From Rickettsiales bacterium (GTDB taxonomy: Bacteria > Pseudomonadota > Alphaproteobacteria > Rs-D84), in contig JAIRRC010000012.1 in the NCBI GenBank assembly GCA_031256175.1, forward strand, positions 914 through 64,913: DNA of 64,000 nucleotides. Direction: 5' to 3'. The notes under the pieces were generated by a model. It was not told the DNA's origin. It searched no databases and saw nothing but the letters and a program-made list of their open reading frames with translations. How positions within the stretch are numbered: the stretch's first letter is position 1; every line of letters starts with the position of its first letter. Both the position numbers and the translations under genes were made by a program. Shown here in pieces: positions 8,888 through 41,610 of the stretch.

Positions 8888-8909
8888 ATTCGCAGCAGGG
8901 GGAAATCTT

Positions 8910-10797: not shown

Positions 10798-10824
10798 AAT
10801 AACGCCATAAGTGGGAGAGAGCGA

Positions 10825-12450
10825 GTGGCAATATCGGCTAAGAACATCATAAGGGATATGAAGGAATCCGTGCCTGCGCGCATGGCGGATTCCGATTCGA
10901 AAAAAATCGTGGAATATCTTTTTTCCGAAGGCAACCAATTGCTGACGGGATTCCGCGGGCGGCTCGAACTGCCCAAAGACACCCAGAATTTGATAGCTTA
11001 TTTTTCCGGCGGCGAATTGATAATTTCGCGCACGCACAGATACGACGGCCGCGTGCTTGCCTTCGTTTCATTGGCCCAGCGCGAAAATCTTCCCCTTAAA
11101 GAGCCGTTTTACAGCGACATGGGCCTGCTGTCCGCCATATACAAGCAGGGCGAGGGCGCTTCGGGCGCCGCCGCGAAATCCCGCCTTGACTACGACAACC
11201 AGATGCAAAAGGACTTCGTCGACATAGTCGCCAAGGCCGCTAGCGCGAAAGTGTCCGACATACATATCGAAGTCGCGAACCATACGACCATATATTTCCG
11301 GAAAGACGGCGGAATGCAGACCATGCTTGAATACAGCGCCGCCTGGGGCGAAAGCTTCATCCGCGCGGCCTTCGCAAGCGCCGACATATCGAGCAGCAAC
11401 TATGCCAAGAACGAATACCAAAGCGCGCAAAAAGACGGCAGGACCCCGCTTCGCGGAACCAAGGATTTATATCTTCCCGCCGGGGTCCTCGGCATCCGCA
11501 TGCAGTTCAATCCAATCGCTTTCGGCTCGCGCTATGTGGTCATGCGCCTTCTTTACGAGAACCCGAGCGAAGGCATTCGGATAGAGCAGGAATTCACCGA
11601 TTTCGAGCAGCGCCTGTTGGCGCGCCTGCGTTCCTTCCCGACCGGCCTTGTGATAGTCGCGGGCCCGACGTCCAGCGGTAAATCGACCACGCTTTTCCAG
11701 AACATGACCATGATGCTGGGCGAGCGCGACTATGAAATAAACTTGATAACCGTCGAAGACCCGGCGGAAAGAAAAATCTTCGGCAGTCGCCAGATGCCGG
11801 TCGTGAACGCCACGACCGAGGAAGCCCGCGACGAAAAATTCACCGAAGCCTTGGCCGCCGCTTTGCGAAGCGACCCGGACGTCCTGATGGTCGGCGAAAT
11901 CCGCACGCTTAGCGCGGCCGAGCTTACCTTGAAGGGCGCGCTTTCGGGACATTCCGTCTGGACGACGCTTCATGCGAATTCCGCGATAGGCGCGCTTAAC
12001 CGCCTTATCGACATGGGCGTCGAGGCCTTCAAACTTAAAGACGAAACCATGATGCGCGGCCTTATGTCCATGCGCCTGTTCAAGCAGCTTTGCCCGCACT
12101 GCAAGGAACCATTGGCGCGTCATCCCGAGCTTGCCGTTCATGCGCGCGCCCTGGATTATTTCGGCGAAACCGGACTTGCGCAGATTTTCATCCGCGGCCA
12201 TGGGTGCGAGCAATGCGGCGGCAAGGGCACCATCGGCCGCGTCAAAGCGGGCGAAATCGTTCTGTGCGACGGAAAAATTTTAGAGCTTGTCGCCAAGGGA
12301 AGCAAACTGGAAGCCCAGGATTATTGGCTGAACGCTTTGGGCGGGCGCACGCTTAAAGAAGCCGCCGGCGAGCTTATGCTTAAAGGCCGCGTCGGCGCGG
12401 ACGAGCTTGAACGCTGGGTCGGCCTTATAGACCAGCCGGGGATTTACTGA
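10825..12450 (+). CDS. Type II/IV secretion-system ATPase (GspE/PilB/TcpT/R64 PilQ family)
   Basis: GTG start with RBS gggagagag. Walker A GPTSSGKST, Asp box, Walker B DPDVLMVGEIR, His box GHSVWTTLHANSA, and the tetracysteine motif CPHC...CEQC. Confidence 0.9.
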   Translation: MAISAKNIIRDMKESVPARMADSDSKKIVEYLFSEGNQLLTGFRGRLELPKDTQNLIAYFSGGELIISRTHRYDGRVLAFVSLAQRENLPLKEPFYSDMGLLSAIYKQGEGASGAAAKSRLDYDNQMQKDFVDIVAKAASAKVSDIHIEVANHTTIYFRKDGGMQTMLEYSAAWGESFIRAAFASADISSSNYAKNEYQSAQKDGRTPLRGTKDLYLPAGVLGIRMQFNPIAFGSRYVVMRLLYENPSEGIRIEQEFTDFEQRLLARLRSFPTGLVIVAGPTSSGKSTTLFQNMTMMLGERDYEINLITVEDPAERKIFGSRQMPVVNATTEEARDEKFTEALAAALRSDPDVLMVGEIRTLSAAELTLKGALSGHSVWTTLHANSAIGALNRLIDMGVEAFKLKDETMMRGLMSMRLFKQLCPHCKEPLARHPELAVHARALDYFGETGLAQIFIRGHGCEQCGGKGTIGRVKAGEIVLCDGKILELVAKGSKLEAQDYWLNALGGRTLKEAAGELMLKGRVGADELERWVGLIDQPGIY

Positions 12451-13523
12451 TGGCGACCAAGCTCGATATAATTTATTCGAAAATCATGTTCCGGTTCGAT
12501 ACGGCGAAGCGCCTTAACGCGTATCGGAAATTGTCGTCGCTGCTTCGGAACGATTTCACCTTGATTGAATCGTTGGACCGGCTTGTCGCGATAGAAAGCC
12601 GCGAGGGGAAAAAACCCAGCGAGCCCTTCGCCGTCGCTTACGCCGACTGGCAGGCCAAGCTGGAACGCGGATACACTTTTTCCGAAGCCATATCCGGCTG
12701 GGCGCCCGAGATAGAAGTCCTTATGCTTTCGGCGTCCGACATTTCGAAGCTTTGGGTCGCGCTTGAAAACGCCGTCAGGGTGGTCGAGGGCGGAAATAAA
12801 ATCAGCGGCGCGTTGGTGTCGGCGCTTTCCTATCCTTTGTTTTTGCTGGCCGCGACATTCGCGATAGTCGTCATGGTCGGGACGTATTTACTGCCGCCCA
12901 TGCTGGAAGCCGCGGGCAGGGACGTCATATGGCGCGGCGCCGCGCGCACCCTTGTAAGCGTGTCGGAATTCTTCGGCGCGAACTGGATTGTCATGGCGGG
13001 CGGGCTTGTCGGCGCCGCGGCATTGATTGCGTTTTCCATGCCGGTTATGCGCGGTCGCCTGCGGACCATGCTGGACAATATTCCGCCCTGGTCGCTTTAT
13101 AAGATTTCCGCAAGCGCCGGCTGGCTGGTGAGTCTTGCGTCGCTTATCAAGGCGGGCGCGACATTGCCCGAAGCGCTTAAAATGATGTCGCAGAATTCGA
13201 ACGGCTATCTGGCCGATGTGTCGGACAAGGCGCTTAACAATGTTATCGCCGGGCACAATCTCGGCGACGCTTTGGACGCCGCAGGTTTGCATTTCCCGAA
13301 CGATGAAATCATAGGCGATTTGAAAATCTATGCGGACATGGACGAATTCGACAAGAACCTTATGAATGTCGCGACTGAATACATGGATAATTCCGTCAAA
13401 AGCATAGAAACGACGGCGAACCTTTTGAATTCGATAGGCGTGCTTCTGATTTCGGTCGTCATAGCGTGGGTCGTCTTCGGCACCTTCGAAATGCAGGACC
13501 AAGTCGCCGCCGCTATCAGCTGA
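12450..13523 (+). CDS. Inner-membrane platform protein (GspF/PilC/TcpE/R64 PilR family)
   Basis: 357 aa with three hydrophobic segments in the GspF-like arrangement. The start overlaps the ATPase stop (TGATG). Confidence 0.7.
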   Translation: MATKLDIIYSKIMFRFDTAKRLNAYRKLSSLLRNDFTLIESLDRLVAIESREGKKPSEPFAVAYADWQAKLERGYTFSEAISGWAPEIEVLMLSASDISKLWVALENAVRVVEGGNKISGALVSALSYPLFLLAATFAIVVMVGTYLLPPMLEAAGRDVIWRGAARTLVSVSEFFGANWIVMAGGLVGAAALIAFSMPVMRGRLRTMLDNIPPWSLYKISASAGWLVSLASLIKAGATLPEALKMMSQNSNGYLADVSDKALNNVIAGHNLGDALDAAGLHFPNDEIIGDLKIYADMDEFDKNLMNVATEYMDNSVKSIETTANLLNSIGVLLISVVIAWVVFGTFEMQDQVAAAIS

Positions 13524-15998
13524 TTATTTCGCCCTTATATAATCCGGGTCGATGGCGCGAAGCGCTTCCGCCTCGTCGAACTTGGCGCCTTTTGGCGTCG
13601 CTATGACGCTTAGCGGACGTGATTCGGAAGACGAATTCCTGAACAGAATCTGCATGGACGCGCCCGTGCCTTCCGCCATGACGGCGGCGTCCCCGGAGAT
13701 TGTCGCGCTGTCCGTTTTAAGGACGAAGGGCGCGCTTGATATGATTTCGCTTCCGCTTATGCGCACCGGAATCGAAAGGGTCTTGATTTCCATCGACGCT
13801 TTGGGCGAAAACGCCCTTTCCAAAAATTCGCCTATATTCGCGCGGGTCAGGCCCTTGCCGAATATCTGGCGCGTGTCTATGCCGACGATTTTTCCGCCGG
13901 TTATGCTTATGTCCGCGCTGCCCTCCATATTTTCCGATATGTCGTTCGCGACCAGGCCGAATGTCGTAAGCAGCGCTTCGCCGGTTATGCTCGCGTCCAT
14001 GATGTCAAGGCCGAGTCTGCCGATAAGCGCGCCCGGAACGGCAAAGCCGCTTGCCTTGGCCGAAATTTCGAATTCGCTTCCGCCGCGCCGCGTTATTTCG
14101 GCGAAGCCCGTGCCGCCGCCCGTGCTTTCCACTGAAATTTTCTGCACGTTTCCGGCCTTGGAGAATACAAGGTTCTTGTATTCCTGTCCGTCGAATATCA
14201 CGACCTTGTCGGCGACCAATGAAAAATCGGGGGCGATTTTGAACAGGCCCATAAGCGGCGCCTGGTGCAGAAACTGCATTTGCTCGTAATTCATAATCCA
14301 ATGGTTCGAAAGCAGGGTGTCGATGTTAAGCTCCGCCGTTTTGAACGCGAAGCTTGTGTCCGCGCCGCGGCCGTAAATCGTCTGCGCGAAAACGCCCTTT
14401 GTCGTAAGCCGCAGGTTCTCGAAGTTTCCAAGCCTGTATTCGCCGGAAAAATCGAATCCTATGCCGCTTTTCATGAAGGCGGTGTCGAAGCCCGGGAACA
14501 TAAGCTGCAATGTTTCCGCCAGGTCGGCGCCCGACAAGACGAATCGGATTTCGCCGCCGGATTCATAGAGCGCGACGCCCATGTTTTCGCTTTTGACGAA
14601 AAGCGTCTGGTCTTTTCCGTCCGTTTCCGCGGTTATCTCGCCCTTGAATTTGGCGCGAAGCGCGGCTGGGATTTTTTCGATTGCGCTCATCTTGAACGGG
14701 ATTTCGGCCAAGGTCCCGGATATATTCCTGTATTTGTGCGAAGCGCCCGCGCGGCTGGCCTTATAGAATCCGATTGTGTCCGAAAGGATTATATGGATGT
14801 CGCCCGCGGCTTCCTTCTTGATTTTTTTTATGACGGCGGCGGTGTCCTGGCCTTCGGTCTTTTCCAGCCAAACCATAAGGCCGCCTTCCCCCATCCCTGC
14901 GCTGCCGGATATGCGCAGGTTTTCCGTATTGATGGAAAGCCCGTTGCAGCCCCAGTCGTCCGCCGATTTCCAGGACAGCGAATTGCACCTGATGGAAACC
15001 GGTTCCGCTATGCCGATTATATCGCTTCCGTCTTTCTTGTATAGGGATACTTCGATGTCCTTCGGCAGTCCGTCCTTCAATTTTCCGCGCGCGCGGAGCG
15101 AAAAATCCTCGCCCTGGATTTCGGCCTTTTGGATTTCGTCCCCGTTCGCGCGGATTTCGAATTTCCTGATTGTCCGCTCGCCGAATTTGAATTTTCCCTC
15201 GCCCGAGATATTGACCGAAGCGGCGGCCGGCGCGCTTTCAAGTATGCCCAAATCGCCCTCTATCATCGTAAGGTCGAGCGTCGATGTTTTTCCGAATGTC
15301 GCATTGCCCTTCATGATGGTGTCGGTGGACGACAGCGTCATGTCGGTAAGTTTCAGGGAATTTTCGGACAGGACGAAATTCGCGTCTATGCCGAGTGGCC
15401 GCGCCGCGGCCGCGCCGAAGCTGTATCCGAAGCCCTGCAAAAATTCTTCAAGATTCGGAAAGCTGCCGCGGAAATGCCCCGCCGCCGTTGTCTTGCCGCC
15501 CGAAAATTTATAGTCGAATTCGGTTTCGAGCGACAGGGCGGAGTTTTCTATCTTGGCGCGCCCGTCCTTTATATCGGCCGTGAACCGCCTGTCGTTATGG
15601 ACGAAGGAACCGGTGAACCGCCGCCCGTCCAAAGTCAGGCGCCCGTTTATGTTTTTGAAGTCGCCGAAGATGGCGCCGCGCACCGACACCGCGCCTGGCA
15701 CCGATATATTGGCCGGATTCAAAAAGTCCGTTATCCTTATCGGGAACTGGACGCTTTCGGCCCGGATGTCCCCGGCCGACACAAGGTGCGCGCGCAAGAT
15801 GGGCCGCGGCAATAATGTTATCCGGACCGCGCCGTCTATCTTCGCGTCCCTTCCTGATTGCTCGGATATGGCGGCGGCGAGACCCGGTTTAAGATACGAA
15901 AAGTCCATAAATGCCGGGAAGATTAGGATACTAATCCCAACGGCGGCGATGATTAGGGTCGAAAACCAGATTATCCGGGCGCGGGTTTTGCGTTTCAT
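13524..15998 (-). CDS. AsmA-family protein (N-terminal TM anchor, large periplasmic domain)
   Basis: Trimmed to the internal start MKRKTRARIIWFSTLIIAAVGISILIF, a TM anchor preceded by an RBS-like sequence. Length and composition are typical of AsmA/TamB-like proteins. The first 88 codons of the tracked ORF read as non-coding. Confidence 0.65.
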   Translation of the reverse strand: MKRKTRARIIWFSTLIIAAVGISILIFPAFMDFSYLKPGLAAAISEQSGRDAKIDGAVRITLLPRPILRAHLVSAGDIRAESVQFPIRITDFLNPANISVPGAVSVRGAIFGDFKNINGRLTLDGRRFTGSFVHNDRRFTADIKDGRAKIENSALSLETEFDYKFSGGKTTAAGHFRGSFPNLEEFLQGFGYSFGAAAARPLGIDANFVLSENSLKLTDMTLSSTDTIMKGNATFGKTSTLDLTMIEGDLGILESAPAAASVNISGEGKFKFGERTIRKFEIRANGDEIQKAEIQGEDFSLRARGKLKDGLPKDIEVSLYKKDGSDIIGIAEPVSIRCNSLSWKSADDWGCNGLSINTENLRISGSAGMGEGGLMVWLEKTEGQDTAAVIKKIKKEAAGDIHIILSDTIGFYKASRAGASHKYRNISGTLAEIPFKMSAIEKIPAALRAKFKGEITAETDGKDQTLFVKSENMGVALYESGGEIRFVLSGADLAETLQLMFPGFDTAFMKSGIGFDFSGEYRLGNFENLRLTTKGVFAQTIYGRGADTSFAFKTAELNIDTLLSNHWIMNYEQMQFLHQAPLMGLFKIAPDFSLVADKVVIFDGQEYKNLVFSKAGNVQKISVESTGGGTGFAEITRRGGSEFEISAKASGFAVPGALIGRLGLDIMDASITGEALLTTFGLVANDISENMEGSADISITGGKIVGIDTRQIFGKGLTRANIGEFLERAFSPKASMEIKTLSIPVRISGSEIISSAPFVLKTDSATISGDAAVMAEGTGASMQILFRNSSSESRPLSVIATPKGAKFDEAEALRAIDPDYIRAK

Positions 15999-16047
15999 AT
16001 TCCTCTCTCTTGATTTATAAGTATAACACATTAGTATATAGGGAACA

Positions 16048-18030
16048 ATGTTTGAATTGAAATCCGCATTTTCACCGACGGGCGACCAGCCCGCAGCAAT
16101 CAAGGAATTGACAGACGGCCTGATAGCGGGCAAACGCGACCAGACGCTTCTTGGGGTTACGGGTTCGGGCAAGACCTTCACCATGGCGAATATAATCGCG
16201 AACCTTGACCGGCCGGCGCTTGTCATGGCGCCGAATAAAATCCTGGCCGCCCAGCTGTTCACCGAAATGAAATCGTTCTTTCCGAAGAACCATGTCGAAT
16301 ACTTCGTGTCCTATTACGATTACTACCAGCCCGAGGCATACGTCCCGACGACCGACACTTATATAGACAAGGACGCCGCGATAAATTCGGATTTGGAGCG
16401 CATGAGGCATTCCGCGACCCGCTCGCTTTTGGAATACCGCGATACGATTGTGGTTTCGTCGGTTTCGTCGATTTACGGCCTTGGCGACCCGGCCGAGTAT
16501 AAATCGATGTGCCGGACTTTTTCGGTCGGGCAGAAAATCGAAATGATGAAAATGCTGATGGAGCTTGTGGCGCTTCAATACAAAAGGAACGACATAGGCT
16601 TTTCCCGCGGCGACTTCATGGTTTCCGGCGACGCGGTCCAGATTTTTCCGCCCCATTCCGAAGACCGCTGCGTCCGCGTTTCATTCTTCGGCGACGAGAT
16701 AGAGGCCATCTATGAAATCGACGGCCTTACCGGAAAAACCATCGCCCAGGTCGGCCATATTTCCGTTTATCCGAACAGCCATTATGCGACGGAAAATTCC
16801 ATAATAACGAACGCTATAAAAAGCATCCGCGTCGAATTGGCCGACCGCCTTGCCTGGCTTGCGGAGAACAAAAAATTGCTGGAAGAACAGCGCCTTAAAG
16901 AGCGCACCAATTTCGATTTGGAAATGATGTCGGCGACGGGAACCTGCAAGGGGATAGAGAATTATTCGCGCTATCTTTCCGGCCGCGCGCCCGGCGAAGC
17001 GCCGCCTACGCTTTTCGAATATCTTCCCAAAGATTCGCTTCTGTTCATCGACGAATCGCACGTGTCGGTTCCGCAAATCGGCGCGATGTATAAGGGCGAC
17101 CGGTCGCGGAAGCAAACGCTTGTGGATTACGGCTTCCGTTTGCCCAGCGCGCTTGACAACCGCCCCATGAAGTTCGAGGAATGGGACGCCATAAGGCCGC
17201 AGACCATTTATGTATCCGCGACGCCGAACGATTATGAAATCGGATTGTCGAAAGGCGTCGTCGCCGAACAGGTAATCCGCCCGACCGGACTTCTCGACCC
17301 GGTGTGCGAAATAAGGCCGACCGCGTCCCAGGTGGACGACCTGCTTGGCGAATGCAAAAAAGTCGCGGCGAACGGGGGCAGGGTGCTGATTACCACCCTT
17401 ACCAAAAAGATGGCGGAACAGCTTACGGAATACCTTGCGGAAAACGGAATCCGCGCGCGCTATCTTCATTCGGACGTCGAAACATTGGAGCGCATAGAAT
17501 TGATTCGGCAGTTGCGCGCGGGCGATTACGACGTCTTGGTCGGAATCAATCTATTGCGCGAAGGGCTGGACATTCCCGAATGCGAGCTTGTCGCGATTAT
17601 GGACGCGGACAAGGAAGGGTTCTTGCGTTCGGCGCGCTCGCTGATTCAGACGATAGGCCGCGCGGCGCGGAACGCGGACGGCCGCGTGATTCTTTATGCC
17701 GATACCGAAACGCGAAGCATGAAGGATGCATTGGCGGAAACTTCGCGCCGGCGCGAAAAGCAGATGGCTTATAATAAGGCGAACAATATAACGCCGAAAA
17801 CCATAACCAAAACCATCTTCGATAAAATCGGCGAAGATTTGAAAGACCGCAAAAAGACCCGGTATATCTATACGCAAAAAGGCGCGCTTACGGCGGACGA
17901 CGTGAAGAAGGAAATCGCGGCGCTTGCGAAACAGATGAAGAAATTGGCCGAAGATTTGGAGTTCGAGCGCGCCGGACTAGTCCGCGACCGATTGAATTCT
18001 CTTAAAGAGGATTTATTGTATTTGGAATAA
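16048..18030 (+). CDS. uvrB: Excinuclease ABC subunit B
   Basis: 660 aa. Helicase Walker [10 protein letters not shown], the beta-hairpin region, and a C-terminal UVR coiled-coil domain. Confidence 0.95.
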
Positions 18031-22697: not shown

Positions 22698-23959
22698 AGT
22701 TTTTCATGCGAACCTTCGGCTGCCAGATGAACGTCTATGACGGCCAGAGAATCGCAAGCCTTCTCGAAAAATCAGGATACGCCGAAACATCCGAAATCCC
22801 GGAAGCCGACGTCATAATAATAAACACCTGCGCGGTGCGCGAAAAGGCGTCGGAAAAAATATTCTCGCTTTTGGGAAAAATTTCGAAAACGAAAAAGGCG
22901 GGCGCGCTGCTCGGCATAGTCGGCTGCGTCGCGCGGGCCGAGGGCGCAAACGCGTTCCGCCGCATAAAGGGCCTGAACTTCGCGCTCGGGCCGCAGTCGT
23001 ATCACAAGCTGCCCGAAGTATTGCGCGAATCGAAATATATGGACGTAGATTTGTCCGGCCTGGAAAAATTCGACGCGCTGCCGACGAACACGCGCAGCAC
23101 CGCAATCGCATACGTGCCCGTTCAGGAAGGCTGTTCGCATTGCTGCACCTATTGCATAGTGCCCTTCACGCGCGGGCCGGAAGTGTCGCGCGATATGGAT
23201 TCGGTCATGTTCGAGGCCCTCGCCGCCGCGGCGCGCGGCGCGGTCGAAATATGCTTCCTTGGCCAGAACGTGAACGGATACAAGCCGGGCTTGGCCGAAC
23301 TTATCCGCCGCGCGGCGAAGATAGAGGGGGTCCGGCGCATAAGATACACTTCGTCCTATCCGACCGAAATGACGGACGATTTAATCGCGCTTCACGGGAC
23401 GGAAGAAAAATTACTGCCCTTCGTGAATATGCCGCTTCAATCTGGTTCGCTCGAAATTCTGAAACGCATGAACCGGCCTTATGACATCGAACAATACCTC
23501 GGCGTTATGGAAAAGTTCAAAGCCGCGCGGCCGGACATAAAAATTTCAAGCGACTTCATAGTGGGATTTCCGGGCGAAACCGAAAAAGATTTCGAAATGA
23601 CGATGGAAATAGTGCGCCGGTGCGGCTTCATAAATTCCTATCCTTTCAAATATTCCCCGCGCCCGCGCACCGCCGCGGCCCTTATGGACGGCCAGGTCGC
23701 CGAAGACGTGAAATCGCGGCGCCTTGAAGAGCTGGACAATCTTCTTAATGAAAACAACCGGGAATTCAACGAAAGTCTGGTCGGGCGCACTTTGACGTGT
23801 CTGGTCGGCGAGGCGGGAAAAAAATCCGGCCAGGTTATAGCGCGCACGCCTTGGACGCAGCAGGTTGTCCTTGACGGCGCCGGCGCGCTCATGGGAAAAT
23901 TGGTCGACATCAAAATAACTTCCGGAAACAAAAGCAGTCTGCGGGGCGAAATCAAATGA
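22694..23959 (+). CDS. miaB: Radical-SAM methylthiotransferase of the MiaB/RimO family (MTTase, radical SAM and TRAM domains)
   Basis: N-terminal MTTase domain (FGCQMN), radical SAM motif CSHCCTYC, and a C-terminal TRAM region. Its position ahead of ybeY-lnt matches the conserved miaB neighbourhood. Confidence 0.65.
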   Translation: MKFFMRTFGCQMNVYDGQRIASLLEKSGYAETSEIPEADVIIINTCAVREKASEKIFSLLGKISKTKKAGALLGIVGCVARAEGANAFRRIKGLNFALGPQSYHKLPEVLRESKYMDVDLSGLEKFDALPTNTRSTAIAYVPVQEGCSHCCTYCIVPFTRGPEVSRDMDSVMFEALAAAARGAVEICFLGQNVNGYKPGLAELIRRAAKIEGVRRIRYTSSYPTEMTDDLIALHGTEEKLLPFVNMPLQSGSLEILKRMNRPYDIEQYLGVMEKFKAARPDIKISSDFIVGFPGETEKDFEMTMEIVRRCGFINSYPFKYSPRPRTAAALMDGQVAEDVKSRRLEELDNLLNENNREFNESLVGRTLTCLVGEAGKKSGQVIARTPWTQQVVLDGAGALMGKLVDIKITSGNKSSLRGEIK

Positions 23960-25746
23960 CGAAAGTTCTTGTTCAAATCCACGACAAAAGATGGAACGGC
24001 GTCAAGCTGGACTATGAAAAAATCATAAATTCCGCTTTGAAAAACAATGCCGAGGTTTCGGTTCTTCTTACGGACGACAAGGAAATCCGCGCGCTTAACA
24101 AGAAATACCGGAACATCGACAAGCCCACCAACGTCCTTTCGTTCGAAACCGGCGACCCCGAGATAATGGGCGACATAGTCCTGTCGTTCGACACGATTCT
24201 GCGCGAATCCGATGAAAAAAAATTCGCGGCGCACGCGACGCATATGCTTGTCCATGGCGCGCTACACTTGGCCGGATACGACCATATAAAGGATTCCGAC
24301 GCCATCATAATGGAATCGCGCGAGGCGAAAATTCTGCGGAAAATAAGATGGGGAAAATGGGTCCGGCGCGCGGCGCTTTTCGCGCTTGGCGGTTTGGCGA
24401 CACTCGGCTTCGCGCCGCATTATTTCTGGTTCATGACCATCTTCGCCATCGGCCTGGCGTATAAGACGGCGCGCGGATACAAGGACGGGTTCTTCTTCGG
24501 CGCGGGATACGCCGCGTTCGCCCTAAGCTGGATGATAAATTCATTCTTCGTGGACGAAGCGGCCGCCGCGATTTTCGGATTTTTGGCGCCGGTCGCCTTA
24601 ATCGGACTTGCAATCGGCGGCGGAATCATATTCGGCCTGCCATTCGCGCTTACGGCCGCGACAAAAGATTACAGCTGGCGAAGGCCGTTTTATTTCGCCG
24701 CGTTCTCTGCGCTCGTCCTTTGGCTGCGCGGCTGGCTTTTCAGCGGATTCCCATGGAATCCCCTTGCCGGAATATTGTTGGAATACGAATCCGCCGCGAA
24801 CATGACTGGCGTCATAGGGGTCGTCGGAACAAGTTTCTTAATCGCCGGAATTTCCGCCGCGATTTTTTCAAAAAAACTAATTCCGATTTTATTTTTCACC
24901 TTGATATTCGCGGCGCTTTCGGTCGTCGGATTCGGAAGGACGATGTCCTATATACCGCTGGCGCCGACCGGAAAGACGGCGCGAATTGTCCAGCCCGCCA
25001 TAGCGCAAGCCTTCAAATCCGACCGCGCAATGGCCGAAGAAAATTTGAAAATCGTCTTGAAATTATCCGACCTGCCGGGCGAATTCGACTTCATAGTATG
25101 GCCGGAAAGCGCGTATCCATATCTTGTGAACGAATTCCAGCGGCTGGATTTTTCCTTCGAAAAACCCCTTGTATTCGGCGGCCTGCGCCGCGGCGCGTCC
25201 GGCTATTACAATTCGATGTTCGTTTTGGAGAACGGAAAAATAACGGCCGTCTACGACAAGCGCCACCTGGTTCCGTTCGGCGAATACAGCCCGCTTGGAC
25301 CGCTTGTGCCGGTGCCCGGGACATTCATGTTCGGCGATGAAAACCAAGGCGCCATGGGCGGTTTCGCGCCGTCTATCTGCTACGAGATAATTTTCCCGGA
25401 TACGGCGGGCGCGGCCGCGGCGGACTTTATAATAAACATTACGAACGACGGATGGTTCGGCAAGTCCAAGGGGCCGCACCAGCACCTTGCGATGGCGCGG
25501 CTGCGCGCAATCGAATCGGGCCTTCCGGTAATCCGCGCGAATTATTCGGGCATATCGGCGGTCATCAATCCGCTGGGCGAAATAACGGCGCGGCTTCCGA
25601 TAGGCGAGCGCGGAATCATAGACGCGCCGGTGCCGCCAAAAATGGAATCAAGCGCGCCGTCGCCGAACGCCGCGATTATAACAATACTGCTTATGGCCGC
25701 CGCGATTCGTTTAACAAGAAGACGCGCAAAGCCGAAGAGAGATTAG
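23956..25746 (+). CDS. ybeY-lnt: In-frame fusion of endoribonuclease YbeY with apolipoprotein N-acyltransferase Lnt
   Basis: The N-terminal ~125 aa carry the YbeY Zn-site motif HGALHLAGYDH. They continue without a stop into multi-TM segments and a CN-hydrolase domain with the Lnt catalytic E/K/C (WPESAYP, YDKRHLVPFGEY, SICYEIIF). Confidence 0.8.
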   Translation: MTKVLVQIHDKRWNGVKLDYEKIINSALKNNAEVSVLLTDDKEIRALNKKYRNIDKPTNVLSFETGDPEIMGDIVLSFDTILRESDEKKFAAHATHMLVHGALHLAGYDHIKDSDAIIMESREAKILRKIRWGKWVRRAALFALGGLATLGFAPHYFWFMTIFAIGLAYKTARGYKDGFFFGAGYAAFALSWMINSFFVDEAAAAIFGFLAPVALIGLAIGGGIIFGLPFALTAATKDYSWRRPFYFAAFSALVLWLRGWLFSGFPWNPLAGILLEYESAANMTGVIGVVGTSFLIAGISAAIFSKKLIPILFFTLIFAALSVVGFGRTMSYIPLAPTGKTARIVQPAIAQAFKSDRAMAEENLKIVLKLSDLPGEFDFIVWPESAYPYLVNEFQRLDFSFEKPLVFGGLRRGASGYYNSMFVLENGKITAVYDKRHLVPFGEYSPLGPLVPVPGTFMFGDENQGAMGGFAPSICYEIIFPDTAGAAAADFIINITNDGWFGKSKGPHQHLAMARLRAIESGLPVIRANYSGISAVINPLGEITARLPIGERGIIDAPVPPKMESSAPSPNAAIITILLMAAAIRLTRRRAKPKRD

Positions 25747-25894
25747 TTTTCCTGCCTTCGTCGATACCGGCCACAAGCTTCGCGACGGAAATTTTCCTTT
25801 GCCCCGCGGCGGCGCGAAGGGCTTCCCAGAATTCGGGTTCAAGGCTGAATGAAGTCTGATGGCCTTTTATAGAGACCGAATATTTTTTCATCAC
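25691..25894 (-). CDS. Ribbon-helix-helix (Arc/MetJ-like) small DNA-binding protein
   Basis: YSVSIKGHQTSFSLEPEFWEALRAAAGQRKISVAKLVAGIDE matches the RHH beta-strand plus two-helix pattern. Last gene of the four-gene operon. Confidence 0.5.
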   Translation of the reverse strand: MMKKYSVSIKGHQTSFSLEPEFWEALRAAAGQRKISVAKLVAGIDEGRKTNLSSALRVFLLNESRRP

Positions 25895-26313
25895 ATCGCA
25901 CCGACAAGCAGGCAGTCGCGAATCGCGGCAAGCGCGTCGTCATAAGCTTTCACCGGCCGCATGGTGTAGAAATCGAGCAGCGAATATTTCAAGTCTTCGC
26001 CCACAACCAGCAGGAACAGGCCGTTGCGGCCGAATATGGTTTTCTTCGCAAGCTGTGGCGTGTTCGAAAAATCGCCGTTCGTCTCCATAAGCGTCCTGGC
26101 GCGCGTCTTGCCCACGGCCGCCGGAAGAAGGCCGAAAATTTCCGCGTCGCCCAAAACCATGCCGCCCGCATTCTCGTAGAATTCGACCAGGCCGCGCGGC
26201 ATCATGATTTTGCCGCTTGCCTGCAAGGCGGCCTGGGTCCGCACGATTTCGCCAGCCGCGCGCGGCAGGAAAACCGCGCCGTATTTTTTAAGCTCTGTCA
26301 GGAATTCGTTCAT
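25891..26313 (-). CDS. Hypothetical protein, possibly SMI1/KNR4 (SUKH)-like
   Basis: The motif MPRGLVEFYENAGG resembles the SUKH LPxxYxxFLxxxNGG signature. 140 aa. ATGA overlap with the downstream RHH gene. Confidence 0.3.
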   Translation of the reverse strand: MNEFLTELKKYGAVFLPRAAGEIVRTQAALQASGKIMMPRGLVEFYENAGGMVLGDAEIFGLLPAAVGKTRARTLMETNGDFSNTPQLAKKTIFGRNGLFLLVVGEDLKYSLLDFYTMRPVKAYDDALAAIRDCLLVGAM

Positions 26314-26317
26314 TCGA

Positions 26318-26836
26318 TTACTCCCTGCTTCCGCTTATCGCGCTCATGACGTCGCTTGCCAGGACGTCGGACATGCGGTCGCTTGTCGCGTTTCCGCCCG
26401 GCGAATTCATGGACGACATGGACGTTAGATAAATCGGTTTTTTCGGATTCGGATAGAAGAATTTTTCCGCGCCGGCCTGGGCCGCTATGAAAACGTCTAT
26501 TGCGCGGCCTTCGCTTGCGGCGCGGCAGACGAACATATTGTCCGGCGAAATCGCGCCGCCGAAAATCGGCGGAACGCGGAATTTCACGGAAACATTTGCC
26601 GGAATCCTTTCGCCTTTAAGCATGGCCATGATGTCGTCCATCGGCAGGTCCATCATCATAAGCTCGTCCCTGTAATCCTGGATGATATTCGTCAGAAGCG
26701 CGCGCCGCGCGGCGCGGTATGCCGCGAACCAGTCGCGCGGCAAGGGGCGCGGGCGGGCGTCGACATCCGCCACCGGCAAATCCGACAATCCCATCGAAGC
26801 CAAAATCCGTTCCGCGTCCGCCTGCGATTTCATCAT
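26318..26836 (-). CDS. Hypothetical protein (172 aa), no recognisable domain
   Basis: Start trimmed to MMKSQADAERIL, which overlaps (ATGA) the stop of the upstream membrane-protein gene. The upstream 48 codons of the tracked ORF lie inside that gene. Confidence 0.4.
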   Translation of the reverse strand: MMKSQADAERILASMGLSDLPVADVDARPRPLPRDWFAAYRAARRALLTNIIQDYRDELMMMDLPMDDIMAMLKGERIPANVSVKFRVPPIFGGAISPDNMFVCRAASEGRAIDVFIAAQAGAEKFFYPNPKKPIYLTSMSSMNSPGGNATSDRMSDVLASDVMSAISGSRE

Positions 26837-27834
26837 TTCTTGTCCCCGCCGTAATACCAAAGAATCGTGTCCATATATTCCACGAAGGATTCGTTCTTCG
26901 GAAGCTTTTCGATTTCGCGCGCGAAGGCTGTCAGCTCGGGCACGCCATGGTTCATGACCTTGACGCCGAGGGCCGCCCATATGCTGGAAAGCTTTTCGTA
27001 ATTTTCGATGTTGCCGTCGGCCATGACGACGAAGGGAACGATTTTTATCTGCATTCCGGCGTCGAGGGTTTCGGCGAACAGGGCTTGCAAAGCCTCGACC
27101 GCGGAATAGATTTCGGAAACCGGCGACTTGAATCCGCCGTCTATGTCGGAAGACCAGATATTCTTTCCGCCCTCGTGCGCCATGACGCGGCCGTGCGCGC
27201 CGCAGACTATTCCTATGTATAATTCCTCGCCATTCAGGGCCCAGACGTCGAGCTGAACGCCTTCGATTTTCGGCGCCTTGCCGATGGTGAATCCGGCGGA
27301 TTCCAGCTCGCGCAGGACTTCGGGCGCGGCGTTCGATTTTATTTCCTCGTCCGTGTTGGCGGGCGCCGGGGTGGGCGACAGGACAGGTTGATAAGTCGGA
27401 ACCGCGGGCGGCGTCGCCGGGCGATACATGGGCTGGGCAAGCGGCGCCATTCTGCGCGGCCTTTCCAAGGCGGTGGCGGCGGCCGAAATTTCCACCGGCT
27501 TTATGTCGAGCACGGGCGAAGCCGCGGGCGAAGCGACAAGCAACGGCATATAATTATCGGCGGGCGCATTCGCTTTCGCGAATCGAATCCGGCGGCGCGG
27601 GCGAACAAGCGCGAACCATACGACCGCTACGGAATAGACCGCGAAAAACAGCATCGCGATATAAAAGCCCCCGGCAATCGCCTGTCCGTCCAGCTGCATG
27701 TCCATGAAATACCGCCAGTGCGCGACCGACAGAATATTGAAGCCGAACGCAAGGTTCGCATAGGCGGAAAATCCCATGACGCCTATGGTCTGCAAAAATG
27801 CGAATTCGAGAAATTTCCGAAGGGATTTCATCAT
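26833..27834 (-). CDS. Membrane protein with a Pro/Ala-rich linker and a C-terminal domain showing weak NERD (PD-(D/E)xK-like) similarity
   Basis: Three predicted N-terminal TM helices. The C-terminal LDVWALNGEELYIGIVCG...NIWS...SPVSEIY...IKIVPFVVMAD follows the NERD pattern, but the catalytic E/K positions appear substituted. Confidence 0.45.
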   Translation of the reverse strand: MMKSLRKFLEFAFLQTIGVMGFSAYANLAFGFNILSVAHWRYFMDMQLDGQAIAGGFYIAMLFFAVYSVAVVWFALVRPRRRIRFAKANAPADNYMPLLVASPAASPVLDIKPVEISAAATALERPRRMAPLAQPMYRPATPPAVPTYQPVLSPTPAPANTDEEIKSNAAPEVLRELESAGFTIGKAPKIEGVQLDVWALNGEELYIGIVCGAHGRVMAHEGGKNIWSSDIDGGFKSPVSEIYSAVEALQALFAETLDAGMQIKIVPFVVMADGNIENYEKLSSIWAALGVKVMNHGVPELTAFAREIEKLPKNESFVEYMDTILWYYGGDKK

Positions 27835-27877
27835 AAAGCAATTATAGCAAAAACGCCCGCGATATGCTAGAATAAGT

Positions 27878-28585
27878 TTGATGGAACAAATGGACTTTCA
27901 AAGCACTTTGTCGGAAATAAGGCCGCACCTGGACCTTTGCTGCTGGAACGCGCCCGACGCATCGGCGCTGATACAGGCGGCGGCGCTGGCCGCGCAGTTC
28001 GAGTTGCGGCGCATTTCGGTCGACGCTTCGTCCGTCGCCAGCGTGTGGAGCTGGCTGGAAAAATCGCGCGTCGCGCTTTCGGCGATGGTCGCGTGGAATT
28101 CGGACAAGGCGGACGCGGCCGCATTGGCGCGCGATATAACGGCGCCATTGAAGCGCGGCGCGGACAGCGTGCAATTATTCGTCAGATGGAAGGATTTGCC
28201 GAAAGCGGCCGAGGCGCTCCGCGAAATAAAATCCGAAATTTTCTTCGACAAGAAATTGTCCGTCGCGCTATCCCTGGACGAAGCGCCATACGACGGCTGG
28301 CCGGCCGCGTTCGATTGCATGGACGATTTGGCCGCGGACAATATAATGCTTATCGCGAAGAATATAAAAACCGCGGGCCAGAAATATTACAGCTTTTTGG
28401 ACGCGCTGGACGCGCCGCGGAAATGGGGGATAGAGGTCTGCGTCGCGTCGGACGCGGTGAAGCCTTTGGAAGACCTTTACCGGCTTACGAACAAAATGCT
28501 TCCGGACGGGATGAATAATCTGCGCATGATAGTCCGGCCGGAATTCATGAAAAATTTTCAGGCGGTGGAACATGAGGATTTATAG
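27878..28585 (+). CDS. Hypothetical protein, possibly a DeoC-like TIM-barrel aldolase-family fold
   Basis: Weak pattern similarity to deoxyribose-phosphate aldolase (alternating beta/alpha segments; IAKNIKTAG near the expected Schiff-base Lys). Low confidence. Confidence 0.3.
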   Translation: MMEQMDFQSTLSEIRPHLDLCCWNAPDASALIQAAALAAQFELRRISVDASSVASVWSWLEKSRVALSAMVAWNSDKADAAALARDITAPLKRGADSVQLFVRWKDLPKAAEALREIKSEIFFDKKLSVALSLDEAPYDGWPAAFDCMDDLAADNIMLIAKNIKTAGQKYYSFLDALDAPRKWGIEVCVASDAVKPLEDLYRLTNKMLPDGMNNLRMIVRPEFMKNFQAVEHEDL

Positions 28586-29360
28586 CATATCGGCTTGCCT
28601 AATCGCCGGCATATCGGCCGAGGCGCCCAAACTTTGCGGCGTCGCGGAACAAGGCGGAATACTATACGGCGAATCGGAAACCCACAGCGTCTATTTTAAC
28701 GGCGAAAACGTGTCGAAGGACGGCGTCTTCGTAATTGGCCTGGCCATGGACGCGCCGGAAAAAGTGTCGCTTAAATTCTGCCCCTCGGGATTCTTCAAAT
28801 CGTGCGAAACATTCGAATATAAAGTCGCGCAAAGGCAGTGGCAGGAACAGCATGTGAAAGTCGCGGACAAATTCATAAACTATCCGAAGGAAACGGCGGA
28901 CAGGATAGCGCGCGAGCGGAAAGTCATAAAGAAAGCGCGAAGCGGCTGGACGGACGGGCTGGCCTTCATGGACATGAAGCCTCCGCTTTCACCCGAACAA
29001 TTCAAGATTTCAAGCGTCTATGGAAGCCGCCGCGTGTTCAACGGAACGCCGAAAAATCCGCATAACGGAATCGATTTCGCCGCGCCTGCCGGAACGCCGG
29101 TGGCGGCTGCGGCGCCCGGCGTCGTGGTGCTTGCCGCAAATTTGTATATGACCGGGAACACGATATTCATCGACCATGGGAACCGGATTTTTTCGGCCTA
29201 TTTCCATTTAAGGAAACTGGACGTCGGCGCGGGCGACGAAGTGTCGGCGGGCACGATTATCGGCGAAGTCGGCAGCACCGGGCGGTCGTCCGGCGCGCAT
29301 CTGCACCTTTCGATTTACTGGGCCGGCACCGCCCTGGACCCCGCGTTTTTCATCGAATGA
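28572..29360 (+). CDS. M23 family (LytM-type) metallopeptidase
   Basis: HxxxD motif region NPHNGIDFAAPAGTPV and HxH motif SGAHLHLSIY. Signal peptide present. Confidence 0.8.
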   Translation: MRIYSISACLIAGISAEAPKLCGVAEQGGILYGESETHSVYFNGENVSKDGVFVIGLAMDAPEKVSLKFCPSGFFKSCETFEYKVAQRQWQEQHVKVADKFINYPKETADRIARERKVIKKARSGWTDGLAFMDMKPPLSPEQFKISSVYGSRRVFNGTPKNPHNGIDFAAPAGTPVAAAAPGVVVLAANLYMTGNTIFIDHGNRIFSAYFHLRKLDVGAGDEVSAGTIIGEVGSTGRSSGAHLHLSIYWAGTALDPAFFIE

Positions 29361-32051: not shown

Positions 32052-32086
32052 AAAACTCCCCCCTTGCGGGAGAGTTGTTTTATTAC
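32052..32086. terminator. Bidirectional terminator hairpin of the AACTCCCCCC..GGGAGAGTT family
   Basis: A-run, aaactcccccc-ttgc-gggagagttg, T-run. It lies between convergent genes. Confidence 0.7.
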
Positions 32087-33366
32087 CAGCTTAAACTGCG
32101 TGTGGTCGATTGGGATTTCCTGTCGCCGAACATGTCGCGTTCGGTCTGTCTTAGAACTTTGAACTGGTCCGTCGATATGACGCGCAAGACGAACGAGCCG
32201 TCCGCCCTGTCGACCAGGACCGGTATGATGCGGCTTTCATGCACGCCCGAATCTATCAGCACCTGGTTGATTATCGCAAGGCGCCGCGCCGCCAGGCGTT
32301 TCGCCTCGGTGTTCGAAACCGCGTCTTCGGACACGGAAATTTGAATCGCGCGCTTCGGATTGTTCGCAATCATCGAGGCGTATTCGGACAGCAGATTGAA
32401 ATTGTCCTTGGTAAGCGCGCTGTCGTTGTCGGCGAAGCTCATCCTGATTTCGAGGGTTTTGGGCATGGATGCGTTCGCATTAATCGAATTGTCGCCGACG
32501 AATCCTTCCTGCGTTACGATTTCCCAATTGTCCGAGCTTAAAGAATCGAAATCTTCGTTCGAATATGCGGAAAGATGCTTGTTTTCCGATATGTAGGATT
32601 TATAGAACGCTTGTTTGAGTTCGCGCGGGGACAGCCTGTTCATCGGAACTTCGCCCGTGTCTTTCGGCGCGAATTCGTCGGTCGTGTTTCGCGCGATTAT
32701 GCGCGCCGGCCTGTCCGCCGGAGCATTTGCGAAGGCGGGCACCGGCTCTGGCGCGGCGACGGCGAATTGTTTATCATCTGACATACCGCGGCTTGACCGC
32801 GGTATCCCGGCATTGTTTATATTATTGGAAAATTTTTCCACGGCCGATTTCGCGCGGCTCGCTTTCTGCTGGCGGTTCTTTTGTTCAATCATGCGCGCGA
32901 TGGAATTGTCGATTTGCGCCTTGCGCTCCGCGTTCGATTGCTTGGGCGCTTGGCGGACCGGCTCGGGCGCGTATGCGATTTTGCTTTTATCTATGTATTC
33001 TTCCGGAAGCGAAAATTCTTCCGCGTCCAGCCGCACGATTTCACCCGCCCGCGGCATGCGGATTTTTTGTTCCGAATATGTTTCGGGTTTTTTGCCCGTA
33101 TTCGCCCAAAGCTCGGAATTCGGCCTGCGCGGCACAAGGACTTCGTTCGCGCCGCTATACTTGGGCGTGCTTGCGGGCTTGCCCGCCGAAGCCTTGGCGA
33201 AGGCGGGCGCGGGTTTCGCGAGAATGGTTTTTTGCGCGCCGAACAATTCCTTGGCCGACACGCTGCCGCGTTCGTATGAAACGCTTGGCAGCTGCGCCGC
33301 CGCGGCCGCATTGTGCGATATAAGCGCGGCAAGAACCGCGAAAATGCCGATTGAATTCCCCTTCAT
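32083..33366 (-). CDS. Secreted protein with a degenerate OmpA-like C-terminal domain
   Basis: Start trimmed to MKGNSIGIFAVLAALISHNAAAAA (signal peptide). The C-terminal AIQISVSE...EAKRLAARRLAIINQVLIDSGV..SRI follows the OmpA_C pattern but lacks GHTD. Confidence 0.4.
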   Translation of the reverse strand: MKGNSIGIFAVLAALISHNAAAAAQLPSVSYERGSVSAKELFGAQKTILAKPAPAFAKASAGKPASTPKYSGANEVLVPRRPNSELWANTGKKPETYSEQKIRMPRAGEIVRLDAEEFSLPEEYIDKSKIAYAPEPVRQAPKQSNAERKAQIDNSIARMIEQKNRQQKASRAKSAVEKFSNNINNAGIPRSSRGMSDDKQFAVAAPEPVPAFANAPADRPARIIARNTTDEFAPKDTGEVPMNRLSPRELKQAFYKSYISENKHLSAYSNEDFDSLSSDNWEIVTQEGFVGDNSINANASMPKTLEIRMSFADNDSALTKDNFNLLSEYASMIANNPKRAIQISVSEDAVSNTEAKRLAARRLAIINQVLIDSGVHESRIIPVLVDRADGSFVLRVISTDQFKVLRQTERDMFGDRKSQSTTRSLSW

Positions 33367-33455
33367 GCAAGGATTGTATCTTAAATCGGCCGGGCGGGTC
33401 AATGGCAAAATAGTTGCATTCGGGGCGCCGTCGGCGTATAATGAATATACGATTT

Positions 33456-33481
33456 GAGATTCCGACCTTCGTCGGAATGAC
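33456..33481. repeat. Palindromic element ..ATTCCGACCTTCGTCGGAATGAC (family copy)
   Basis: 23-nt identity with the 18037-18062 copy. Confidence 0.7.
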
Positions 33482-33490
33482 AAGGAAAAA

Positions 33491-39981: not shown

Positions 39982-41610
39982 ATGCAAAAAAAGATAGTAT
40001 TCGGAATCATCGGCGCCATGGCGTTTTCGGCGCAGGTTCATGCGGCGGGCGTGGAAGCCGGCCGGGCCGTTCTTCGCGGCGCGCCCATGCCGGCCGGAAA
40101 TAACGCCAATCTGGCGGACATAGTCCGCGCGAGCGCCGCCGCCAATGTCCGCGCGCCGGGCGACGTCCAGGTCGTGAACCCGAACACCGGAAACATAATG
40201 ACCGAAAGCTTTTTGGCCGACGGCACCATCCTTTACACCGACCCCGTAACGGGTGAAAAATTCGTCATGGCCGGCGGCAAGCTTGTCGCCTATATGGACG
40301 AGGACGACCGCATGGTCCCGGCGCTTAACGTGAACGTCGGCACCGCGCGAAACGTTTGCAACGCCATCGAAGCATACGGCTATCAGGGCGAATTCAACGA
40401 GCTTACGTATGAGTGCATGGTGCCGATAGTCGCGGTCGGAACCGGCGGAAAGATTAGCAGCGGCGACGGCGACGCGGTCGCTTTCTATCCCTTCGGTTCC
40501 TATGTGAAGTGCGACGCCGGCATGTTCGACACCATCAGCGTCATGCGCAGGAATTCCCAATATATCGTTCCCGCGATGATTGTGGGCGGCGGCCTTGCGG
40601 GCGCCGGCATCGGACTTGCGGTCGATAAATATCAGGAAGGCCAGGCCAAGAAAAAAGTCGACGCCAACGCGGCCGCCGCTGGCGCCGAGGCCGGTGTCGC
40701 CGCGGCTTCGTCCGGCTCCAAGCTTTCCACCAAGCAGGATTTCCTTGCCGAGATTGAAAGAATCAAAAAACAGATGGACGCCAACGACACGACTTTCTGG
40801 TGCGCGTCCTTGCCGCGCGACGTCGCGAATAATATAAAGAGCACGATGGCCGCCGGAACCACATGGAACTGCATAGCCCAGTCGGAGCTTAAATATCCGA
40901 ACCAGGGCGACGCCTTCATGTTCGACGTGATAGCGGGCAACCTGAACAATGCGAAGGATATGCTCAGCAGAACCAACCGGGAATGCCAGCCCGCTTTGGA
41001 TATAATGAATTATATAAACAACACCGCGAAGTTCGAATACGCGCCAAGCATTAAATGCGCCGGAAAGACCGGGCCCGCGGTTACCATCAAATATAGCGTC
41101 GACGGCCAATGGAAATACTTCGGCGACAACGAGATACTGGAAGGCAAGCGCCGCGCGAACGAAATGTCGTCTAAGCTCGAAGCTTTGGTGAAGAATCTTC
41201 CGCCGGTCGGAAACTTCGACAAGGCGCAGTATATGGCAGACAGGGCGAACAGGGTTAACGAGCTTAAACTGCTCGAACCGCAAATCGCCGGTTCTAACCT
41301 CAGCCAATCCGAGAAGAACGACCTTTATATAATCATAAACGACCTGTCCAAGCTGTATATAAAGCAGGACGGCGAGAAGCAGTCCATCTTCGGAAAGATT
41401 TGGGACAGCAATGTCGGCAGGGGCGCCATACTCGGAACCGCCGTCGGCGCGGTCGCCGGCACGGCCTATTTCTTCTACGAGGGCGCGAACACCAAATGCG
41501 ACATCGGCGGATTCAAGTCCATCGGCCTTGACGACACCTTCCGCATGCCGAGCTTCCGCGACTTCATCCAAACCAATATGCCGGCCGTTCTTCCCGAGCC
41601 CGAAATATAG
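39982..41610 (+). CDS. Large secreted/membrane protein of unknown function (542 aa)
   Basis: Sec signal peptide MQKKIVFGIIGAMAFSAQVHA and two internal Gly-rich hydrophobic segments. No recognisable domain. Confidence 0.45.
   Translation: MQKKIVFGIIGAMAFSAQVHAAGVEAGRAVLRGAPMPAGNNANLADIVRASAAANVRAPGDVQVVNPNTGNIMTESFLADGTILYTDPVTGEKFVMAGGKLVAYMDEDDRMVPALNVNVGTARNVCNAIEAYGYQGEFNELTYECMVPIVAVGTGGKISSGDGDAVAFYPFGSYVKCDAGMFDTISVMRRNSQYIVPAMIVGGGLAGAGIGLAVDKYQEGQAKKKVDANAAAAGAEAGVAAASSGSKLSTKQDFLAEIERIKKQMDANDTTFWCASLPRDVANNIKSTMAAGTTWNCIAQSELKYPNQGDAFMFDVIAGNLNNAKDMLSRTNRECQPALDIMNYINNTAKFEYAPSIKCAGKTGPAVTIKYSVDGQWKYFGDNEILEGKRRANEMSSKLEALVKNLPPVGNFDKAQYMADRANRVNELKLLEPQIAGSNLSQSEKNDLYIIINDLSKLYIKQDGEKQSIFGKIWDSNVGRGAILGTAVGAVAGTAYFFYEGANTKCDIGGFKSIGLDDTFRMPSFRDFIQTNMPAVLPEPEI

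Follow-up and report, generated by a model that had tools for sequence, protein, structure and literature searches.

In a 64,000-nucleotide stretch (the window) of contig JAIRRC010000012.1, from an uncultured gut alphaproteobacterium of the order Rs-D84, four minus-strand genes at positions 25691-27834, which we call g1 to g4, form a compact operon that is kept at the same chromosomal site across the order. Its first three genes encode a membrane protein with a restriction-endonuclease fold that lacks conserved catalytic residues, an HNH-fold protein that has lost its histidines, and a SUKH-family protein; the fourth encodes a ribbon-helix-helix (RHH) protein. In a sister clade, the orthologous operon has virD4 between g1 and g2. 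Our tentative reading is that the operon makes a non-catalytic inner-membrane complex that works with a VirD4-type coupling protein. An accessory complex of a secretion system is more likely, in our judgement, than a phage-defence or toxin system, and the link to a type IV secretion system (T4SS) in this organism would be by extension from its sister lineages.

A conserved four-gene operon

The open reading frames (ORFs) of g1 (26833-27834, 333 aa), g2 (26318-26836, 172 aa) and g3 (25891-26313, 140 aa) are followed by that of g4, which spans 25691-25891 if it begins at the ATG chosen by the gene callers (66 aa) or extends to 25894 if it begins at a GTG (67 aa). The close coupling that the first-pass annotation had described is borne out by direct reading of the junctions: g1 and g2 share an ATGA overlap, g2 and g3 are separated by a 4-nt gap (TAA-tcga-ATG), and g3 and g4 meet in a GTGA overlap, or in TGATG with the ATG start. 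The public gene calls of the source contig match the operon ORFs (locus tags LBG89_01060-01070).

When each GTDB species was represented by a single genome, 224 of the genomes scanned encoded a g3 relative, and many of these are named 'Candidatus Enterousia'. We scanned the ORFs of 80 of those loci with hidden Markov models (HMMs), and the 81 species-level loci referred to below are those in which all four genes could be placed. The close spacing is kept across these 81 loci (the g1-g2 distance is -1 in 56 of them, and g3 and the RHH gene lie a median of 1 nt apart), which rules out chance ORFs. The cassette is colinear and occupies the same site in 81/81, the order u224(-)|g1-g2-g3-RHH_4(+), where u224 is the divergent neighbor of g1, recurs in every scanned locus of sufficient length, and a ybeY-lnt fusion gene directly follows the cassette in about 70 of 80 loci. 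Other searches gave the same picture: a word-indexed search of 5.8 billion proteins found only five relatives of g1, all five in the identical four-gene layout, and profiles of g2 and g3 reached relatives of 30-42% identity in metagenome-assembled genomes of gut Alphaproteobacteria, again with the layout unchanged. Two of the RHH genes had been overlooked by gene callers owing to the overlap with lnt; the RHH gene is present after g3 in all related loci.

Rs-D84 genomes measure 0.67-1.6 Mb and encode no respiration and few biosynthetic pathways, and its members, such as 'Candidatus Enterousia', are presumed to be obligate symbionts or parasites that depend on other cells (PMC12306168). Occupancy of the same site in every Rs-D84 locus examined, in genomes this small, runs counter to what is seen for defence and toxin-antitoxin (TA) modules, whose distribution is patchy and mobile. 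The cassette is a vertically inherited core locus, and neither a defence island nor a mobile island. The first-pass annotation had proposed to check whether the four genes co-occur as a conserved cassette in defence islands; they do form a conserved cassette, but it lies among housekeeping genes.

One of the loci (L015; OZ246409.1, 423661-436080) carries the alphaproteobacterial cassette and ybeY-lnt in a record of 716,531 bp labelled 'uncultured Muribaculaceae'. The label looks wrong, and OZ246409.1 may be a complete Rs-D84 chromosome.

g1 is a predicted membrane-anchored pseudo-nuclease

An AlphaFold2 model of g1 built from 70 sequences (predicted local distance difference test score 86.5) has long membrane helices at aa 2-30 and aa 55-77 and, between the two, a short amphipathic one (aa 37-48), rather than the three transmembrane helices proposed at first. 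This predicted inner-membrane hairpin (aa 1-77, nt 27604-27834, minus strand) is followed by a disordered Pro/Ala linker (aa 78-165, nt 27340-27603, minus strand) and by an alpha/beta domain (aa 166-333, nt 26836-27339, minus strand) that is modeled confidently over aa 166-330. The positive-inside rule, applied to the RPRRRIRF segment that follows helix 2, places this C-terminal domain on the cytoplasmic side.

The C-terminal domain has the alpha-beta-beta-beta-alpha-beta core fold of restriction endonucleases (the PD-(D/E)xK superfamily), in keeping with the earlier description of a NERD-like nuclease with substituted catalytic positions. Conservation does not extend to the D...(D/E)xK residues: D196 is found in 36 of the 70 sequences, and positions 209-213 are hydrophobic or C, G, N or P across the family (IVCGA in the window). 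What is conserved in this domain is W227, S237-P238, N278, T323 and Y327, and in the membrane hairpin G31-F32-N33, H39-W40, Q47 and F57-Y58. Against the NERD family itself (PF08378), the window g1 scores 16.1 bits (E 0.016), below the gathering cutoff of 22.1 bits, and weak NERD matches occur in 2 of 58 family members. The closest known proteins are NERD and other PD-(D/E)xK restriction-endonuclease-like nucleases (Can2/Card1-type proteins, the FokI cleavage domain, NucS and AF1548), from which g1 differs in the conserved membrane hairpin and long disordered tether that precede its nuclease-fold domain. When 1.84 billion representative sequences were searched with a profile, 183 g1 relatives of identical architecture came up; those that carry a name are called 'hypothetical protein [Alphaproteobacteria bacterium]', and no match to g1 was found on plasmids.

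Several variants of g1 were also seen. A loop of about 25 aa (GAHGRV...SSDIDG; aa 212-236, nt 27127-27201) is present in the clade of the window and in the virD4-type clade and is deleted in the Enterousia-type loci L007 and L009. In many sister-clade loci (L095, L096, L103-L176), g1 stands in two or three tandem copies before virD4. One paralogue (L096, 6294-7121) is reduced to the membrane hairpin, and another (P0200) keeps a D...DDK motif together with a weak NERD match. We also considered g1 as a homologue of DotM and rejected this, as the cytoplasmic domain of DotM is all-alpha whereas g1 has the PD-(D/E)xK alpha/beta fold.

g2 and g3 are related to an HNH toxin and its immunity protein

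The product of g2 had been described as having no recognisable domain. This holds as far as Pfam is concerned: g2 has no Pfam match and no sequence match in the PDB, and none of 22 g2 proteins from the sister clade matches an HNH family in Pfam. Comparisons of structure and of profiles nevertheless identify an HNH-fold protein, with a beta-beta-alpha core at aa 82-118. The top 11 Foldseek matches of g2 are all Cas8-HNH proteins, at E values (0.04-0.5) that do not reach 0.001, and McrA, IscB, colicin E9 and EsaD, which are also listed for this fold, point to the same kind of protein. The sequence comparisons are stronger: g2 proteins of the sister clade match plasmid HNH endonucleases and the C-terminus of LXG type VII secretion system (T7SS) toxins on plasmids in tblastn (E 2e-8), a profile of the sister-clade proteins matches an IncHI2 plasmid 'HNH endonuclease' in hhalign (probability 99.2%, E 1e-19), and the Rs-D84 g2 profile matches that same protein (probability 86%, E 5e-6). 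This sequence evidence settles the assignment of g2 as a predicted HNH-fold homologue of the HNH domain in LXG and plasmid toxins.

The first-pass assignment of g3 to the SMI1/KNR4-like (SUKH) proteins is confirmed by its family rather than by the window protein, which has no Pfam match when searched alone. SMI1_KNR4 matches weakly in 8 of 37 close members of the g3 family, and the L093 homologue, which matches the window-family HMM at E 4e-14, lies above the Pfam SMI1_KNR4 gathering cutoff (29.8 vs 25.4 bits, E 1e-6). Among 23 g3 members, 12 match SMI1_KNR4, 11 SUKH_5 and 7 SUKH_6. A broad g3 profile also matches the YrhA protein encoded next to the plasmid HNH gene (hhalign probability 95.5%, E 1.4e-8); a profile limited to Rs-D84 did not reach YrhA or a B. 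subtilis SMI1/KNR4 protein directly, so that the broader profile was needed.

In the two reference pairs, a YrhA gene follows the gene for the LXG T7SS toxin WP_109962769.1, whose C-terminus is the part related to g2, on the B. subtilis plasmid NZ_CP064819.1, and the gene for the 'HNH endonuclease' WP_224379386.1 on IncHI2 plasmids. Because YrhA follows both, the pair g2-g3 as a whole corresponds by homology to an HNH toxin domain and the immunity-type protein encoded downstream of it, with the gene order alike. Toxin-immunity pairs of this kind belong to the SUKH framework of Zhang, Iyer and Aravind 2011 (PMC3113570). The HNH endonuclease-YrhA pair occurs on 406 conjugative enterobacterial plasmids (417 plasmid records; for example 3749-4840 of L180, NZ_CP067381.1), and on an IncHI2 plasmid it adjoins a gene with a TraG N-terminal domain.

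The HNH toxins and g2 share the motif skeleton P..GG...N...P.P..IY but differ at the histidines. The reference toxin motif is VHHK[LI]PLDDGG...N...PYH, in which the second His is the general base and the Asn is invariant in all groups. In the sister clade, the first His and the later PYH His are kept and the second is L, I or M, so that HH has become H-[L/I/M]. In Rs-D84, the first is R or K, the second F or L, and position 109, that of the later His, is H in 49 of 73 sequences. The window protein (VKFRVPPIFGG...N...SEG) has K and F at the first two positions and has also lost the later one, so that all three motif histidines are gone. At position 86, that of the general base, the 73 g2 sequences have F (61), L (10), W (1) or M (1), and His in none. 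We therefore predict that g2 is catalytically dead, and the intermediates in the loss of its active site are visible, from HH in the toxins through H-x in the sister clade to neither in Rs-D84.

Two further features separate g2 from polymorphic toxins: it has no N-terminal trafficking domain, and it is highly conserved rather than polymorphic. Its C-terminus carries an invariant GGNATSDR motif (aa 147-154) in a disordered tail modeled with low confidence, which may serve as a docking peptide.

The first-pass annotation likened the operon to a toxin/immunity or phage-defence module, and its ancestry is in part just that, since g2 and g3 descend from a toxin-immunity pair. An active toxin-immunity, TA or abortive-infection module, in which g2 would be the toxin, g3 its immunity protein, the RHH protein an autoregulator and g1 a membrane sensor or effector, would account for that homology, for the toxin-then-immunity order and for the tight coupling and small RHH gene typical of TA-like modules. 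We consider it improbable all the same. Besides the missing general base and the absence of D/ExK from g1, none of the four proteins matches PADLOC-DB 2.0 at E <= 1, in agreement with the earlier statement that no homologue of a characterised defence system is evident. The locus is moreover a fixed one among housekeeping genes in every species locus examined of an order with extremely reduced genomes, it shows neither signs of mobility nor a composition anomaly, and the orthologous operon of the sister clade has virD4 between g1 and g2. Unlike toxin pairs, which are polymorphic and mobile, g2 and g3 form an order-wide core pair, whose genes are tied to that of a membrane pseudo-nuclease and also, in the sister clade, to virD4.

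g4 and the promoter region

As the first-pass annotation had it, g4 encodes a ribbon-helix-helix protein: it is a clear member of RHH_4 (PF13467), scoring 77 bits (cutoff 25; E 1.1e-21) over 61 of 67 residues. RHH_4 was the only match when the four window proteins were searched against Pfam, NCBIfam and PADLOC, and PDB sequence searches with single sequences and profiles (g1, g2, g3 and RHH) gave nothing meaningful. We found no published function for RHH_4, PF13467 or COG4321. Within this family, g4 stands out in being tied to g1-g3, as the last gene of the operon (3′ end) in Rs-D84 and the first (5′ end) in the sister clade. It is presumably the DNA-binding regulator of the operon.

An extended -10 element, TGCTATAAT (27841-27849, minus strand), was read from the sequence 6 nt upstream of the g1 ATG, inside the 55-bp divergent spacer. 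It is kept in the window, L002 and L004, and may act as the promoter of the operon. A generic promoter scan did not list it, and the promoter and terminator scan gave nothing informative; a search of the spacer upstream of g1 for an RHH_4 operator repeat found repeats only at chance level.

virD4 lies within the orthologous operon of a sister clade

The link to type IV secretion comes from relatives outside Rs-D84. In locus L094, the gene order is RHH_4 - g1 - VirD4/TraG coupling protein - g2, and the L094 VirD4, used to scan metagenomes, retrieved 80 loci (54-74% identity) on contigs of up to 375 kb. Cluster members occur on contigs of up to 958 kb, and one member is 'Acetobacter sp. CAG:977'. 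Among the 80 loci, every contig that extends far enough has g1, often in two or three tandem copies, directly upstream of virD4; g2 and g3 directly follow virD4 in about 45, and RHH_4 precedes g1 in L094, L101, L126 and L173. The operon of the sister clade can thus be written (RHH_4)-g1-virD4-g2-g3.

Genes for another T4SS component accompany it. Several virD4-type loci have tandem VirB6/TrbL arrays 3-5 kb upstream, and in L096 four tandem TrbL/VirB6 paralogues are divergent from three tandem g1 paralogues. The L093 lineage provides a second connection: there, three VirB6-like genes are divergent from a 422-aa gene that is followed by g1-g2-g3-RHH_4, AsmA and UvrB, so that a cassette that lacks virD4 coexists with an adjoining VirB6/TrbL array. 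Overall, arrays of two to four VirB6/TrbL paralogues were noted upstream of and divergent from g1-virD4 in L096 (2-5346) and in the first 3 kb of L103, L112, L117 and L120. They resemble the duplicated rvhB6 genes of Rickettsiales.

A shared uvrB neighborhood makes the two operon forms positional orthologues: L111 has the order g1-virD4-g2-g3-uvrB, L093 and L177 have g1-g2-g3-RHH_4|AsmA|UvrB, and in close relatives of the window the distance from the cassette to uvrB is about 2 kb or less.

Several observations weigh against extending this link to the window. Neither virD4 nor VirB6/TrbL was found by tblastn in the 64-kb window or in the approximately 12-kb flanks of 80 Rs-D84 loci, and no VirB/VirD4 family turned up when 34 window ORFs, the four cassette proteins among them, were scanned with Pfam. 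In essence, the linkage is seen in two lineages, that of L093 and the CAG:977-like clade, and in L177 the 10 kb around the cassette contain no T4SS gene. Downstream of virD4, g2-g3 could not be detected in about 35 of the 80 loci, and in five of these that were examined (L137, L141, L150, L164 and L176) the downstream ORFs contained no g2- or g3-like sequence.

These observations bear on the principal alternative, that in Rs-D84 the operon makes a lineage-specific housekeeping complex independent of a T4SS, after loss of virD4 or perhaps of the whole T4SS. Candidate roles would be DNA tethering or handling at the membrane, partnership with a type IVb pilus, or an envelope function with ybeY-lnt or the M23 peptidase. 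In its favor, the Rs-D84 sequence searched (window and flanks) yielded no T4SS gene, the cassette is strictly kept beside ybeY-lnt and u224-M23, its syntenic neighbors in the window and L177 include AsmA, UvrB and a type IVb-pilus-like cluster, and both nuclease folds could still bind nucleic acid. We nonetheless regard this alternative as rather unlikely, given that virD4 splits the orthologous operon in the sister clade and that the virD4-less cassette of L093 adjoins a VirB6 array; pilus genes are absent from the vicinity of the virD4-type operons, and the tie to Lnt or M23 is one of adjacency only, variable outside Rs-D84.

The position of g2 and g3 directly downstream of virD4 in over half of the sister-clade loci also recalls the T4SS effector-immunity pairs that lie beside virD4 in Xanthomonadales. 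By analogy, g2 could be a translocated effector, interbacterial or aimed at a host, with g3 as its chaperone or immunity protein and g1 as a receptor that hands g2 to VirD4; the conserved motif in the disordered C-terminus of g2 might then be a recognition signal. A toxin lacking its catalytic base would be an unlikely weapon, however, g2 is highly conserved rather than polymorphic, and a T4SS in this organism would itself be an extrapolation from its relatives. Of the explanations weighed here, this one seems to us the least probable.

A possible coupling complex

If the operon does make a complex that works with a VirD4-type coupling protein, the parts could fit together as follows. g1 would be the membrane anchor and platform, comprising the two-helix hairpin, the flexible Pro/Ala tether and the dead restriction-endonuclease-fold domain. 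g2 would be a former HNH toxin domain that lost its His dyad and g3 a former SUKH/YrhA-type immunity protein that presumably still binds it, and the retained heterodimer would now be a structural or adaptor unit. g4 would be an RHH_4 repressor, presumably acting on the shared 55-bp divergent promoter region. The most probable role of the complex as a whole would then be to provide accessory, receptor or adaptor subunits of the coupling protein, whose gene would no longer lie within the operon in the Rs-D84 lineage.

Such an arrangement would resemble the Dot/Icm system of Legionella, in which a VirD4-family ATPase is likewise encoded with an upstream membrane protein (N-terminal transmembrane helices and a cytoplasmic domain) and small cytoplasmic partners. 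dotM lies directly upstream of dotL, as g1 lies upstream of virD4 in the sister clade. The Dot/Icm coupling complex consists of DotL with DotM, DotN and IcmS/IcmW (PMC5802825, PMC7280309). The resemblance does not extend to the proteins: the cassette proteins have no homology to DotM, DotN, IcmS or IcmW, and g2 and g3 have HNH and SUKH folds. The systems also differ in type, since Dot/Icm is type IVB whereas the machinery associated with the sister-clade operon looks type IVA (TrbL/VirB6 arrays), and in the window virD4 is not adjacent.

A bolder form of this proposal, which we hold to be possible but doubtful, is that g1-g2-g3 are a previously unrecognised coupling complex for the type IVA (tandem-VirB6) systems of host-associated uncultured Alphaproteobacteria, derived from a domesticated HNH-SUKH pair and a membrane NERD-like nuclease, all of them dead and by now indispensable, so that Rs-D84 keeps the operon in its core genome. 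Type IVA systems have been described as needing VirD4 alone for substrate coupling (PMC5802825). If the proposal is right, a coupling complex of several subunits would have arisen in a type IVA-like system, independently of DotM/DotN/IcmSW in Legionella, and the HNH domain of a polymorphic toxin would have been exapted, together with its SUKH immunity partner, as non-catalytic structural subunits. The genes would then mark candidates for the interaction of these uncultured gut bacteria, with genomes of 0.7-1 Mb, with their partner cells. If Rs-D84 instead has no T4SS, the operon would be a conserved core module built from dead nucleases, and still of experimental interest. No source gives g1, g2 or g3 a functional name, and the literature yielded no paper on the family or on VirD4 in association with SUKH or HNH proteins; the composition of this conserved operon is unexpected, and the role we suggest for it in this organism is open to test.

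Neighboring genes

The base composition of the region is unremarkable. On one side, the operon is flanked by gatC-gatA-gatB, miaB and the ybeY-lnt fusion ORF (23956-25746, plus strand), a single ORF of 596 aa with Pfam YbeY, LNT_N and CN_hydrolase domains, which is convergent with g4 and overlaps its 3′ end by 56 nt. This fusion of YbeY (an endoribonuclease) to Lnt (apolipoprotein N-acyltransferase) is called in all related loci, at 596-669 aa. The other side begins with u224 (27890-28585, plus strand, 231 aa), which is divergent from g1 and overlaps the downstream gene for an M23 peptidase (together 27890-29360), followed by ruvA and yebC. u224 has no Pfam match. It is found in at least 80 related loci, with a u224-g1 spacer of 42-44 bp in 68 of 81 (55 bp in the window), and is absent from virD4-type loci; its membership of the system is uncertain.

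Elsewhere in the window, Pfam gives no match at E <= 1e-4 for four large ORFs of 442-542 aa (32083-33483, minus strand; 39982-41610, plus; 46095-47423, minus; 49224-50828, plus). A type IVb-pilus-like cluster (6496-13523, plus strand) encodes TcpQ, a secretin, a PilO-like protein, a T2SSE ATPase and a T2SSF platform protein, and beside it lie AsmA (13524-16262) and UvrB (16048-18030). We considered tying the cassette to this nearby pilus and dropped the idea, as the virD4-type operons have no pilus genes nearby. The pilus-like cluster, AsmA and UvrB recur near the cassette in L002, L004 and L177.

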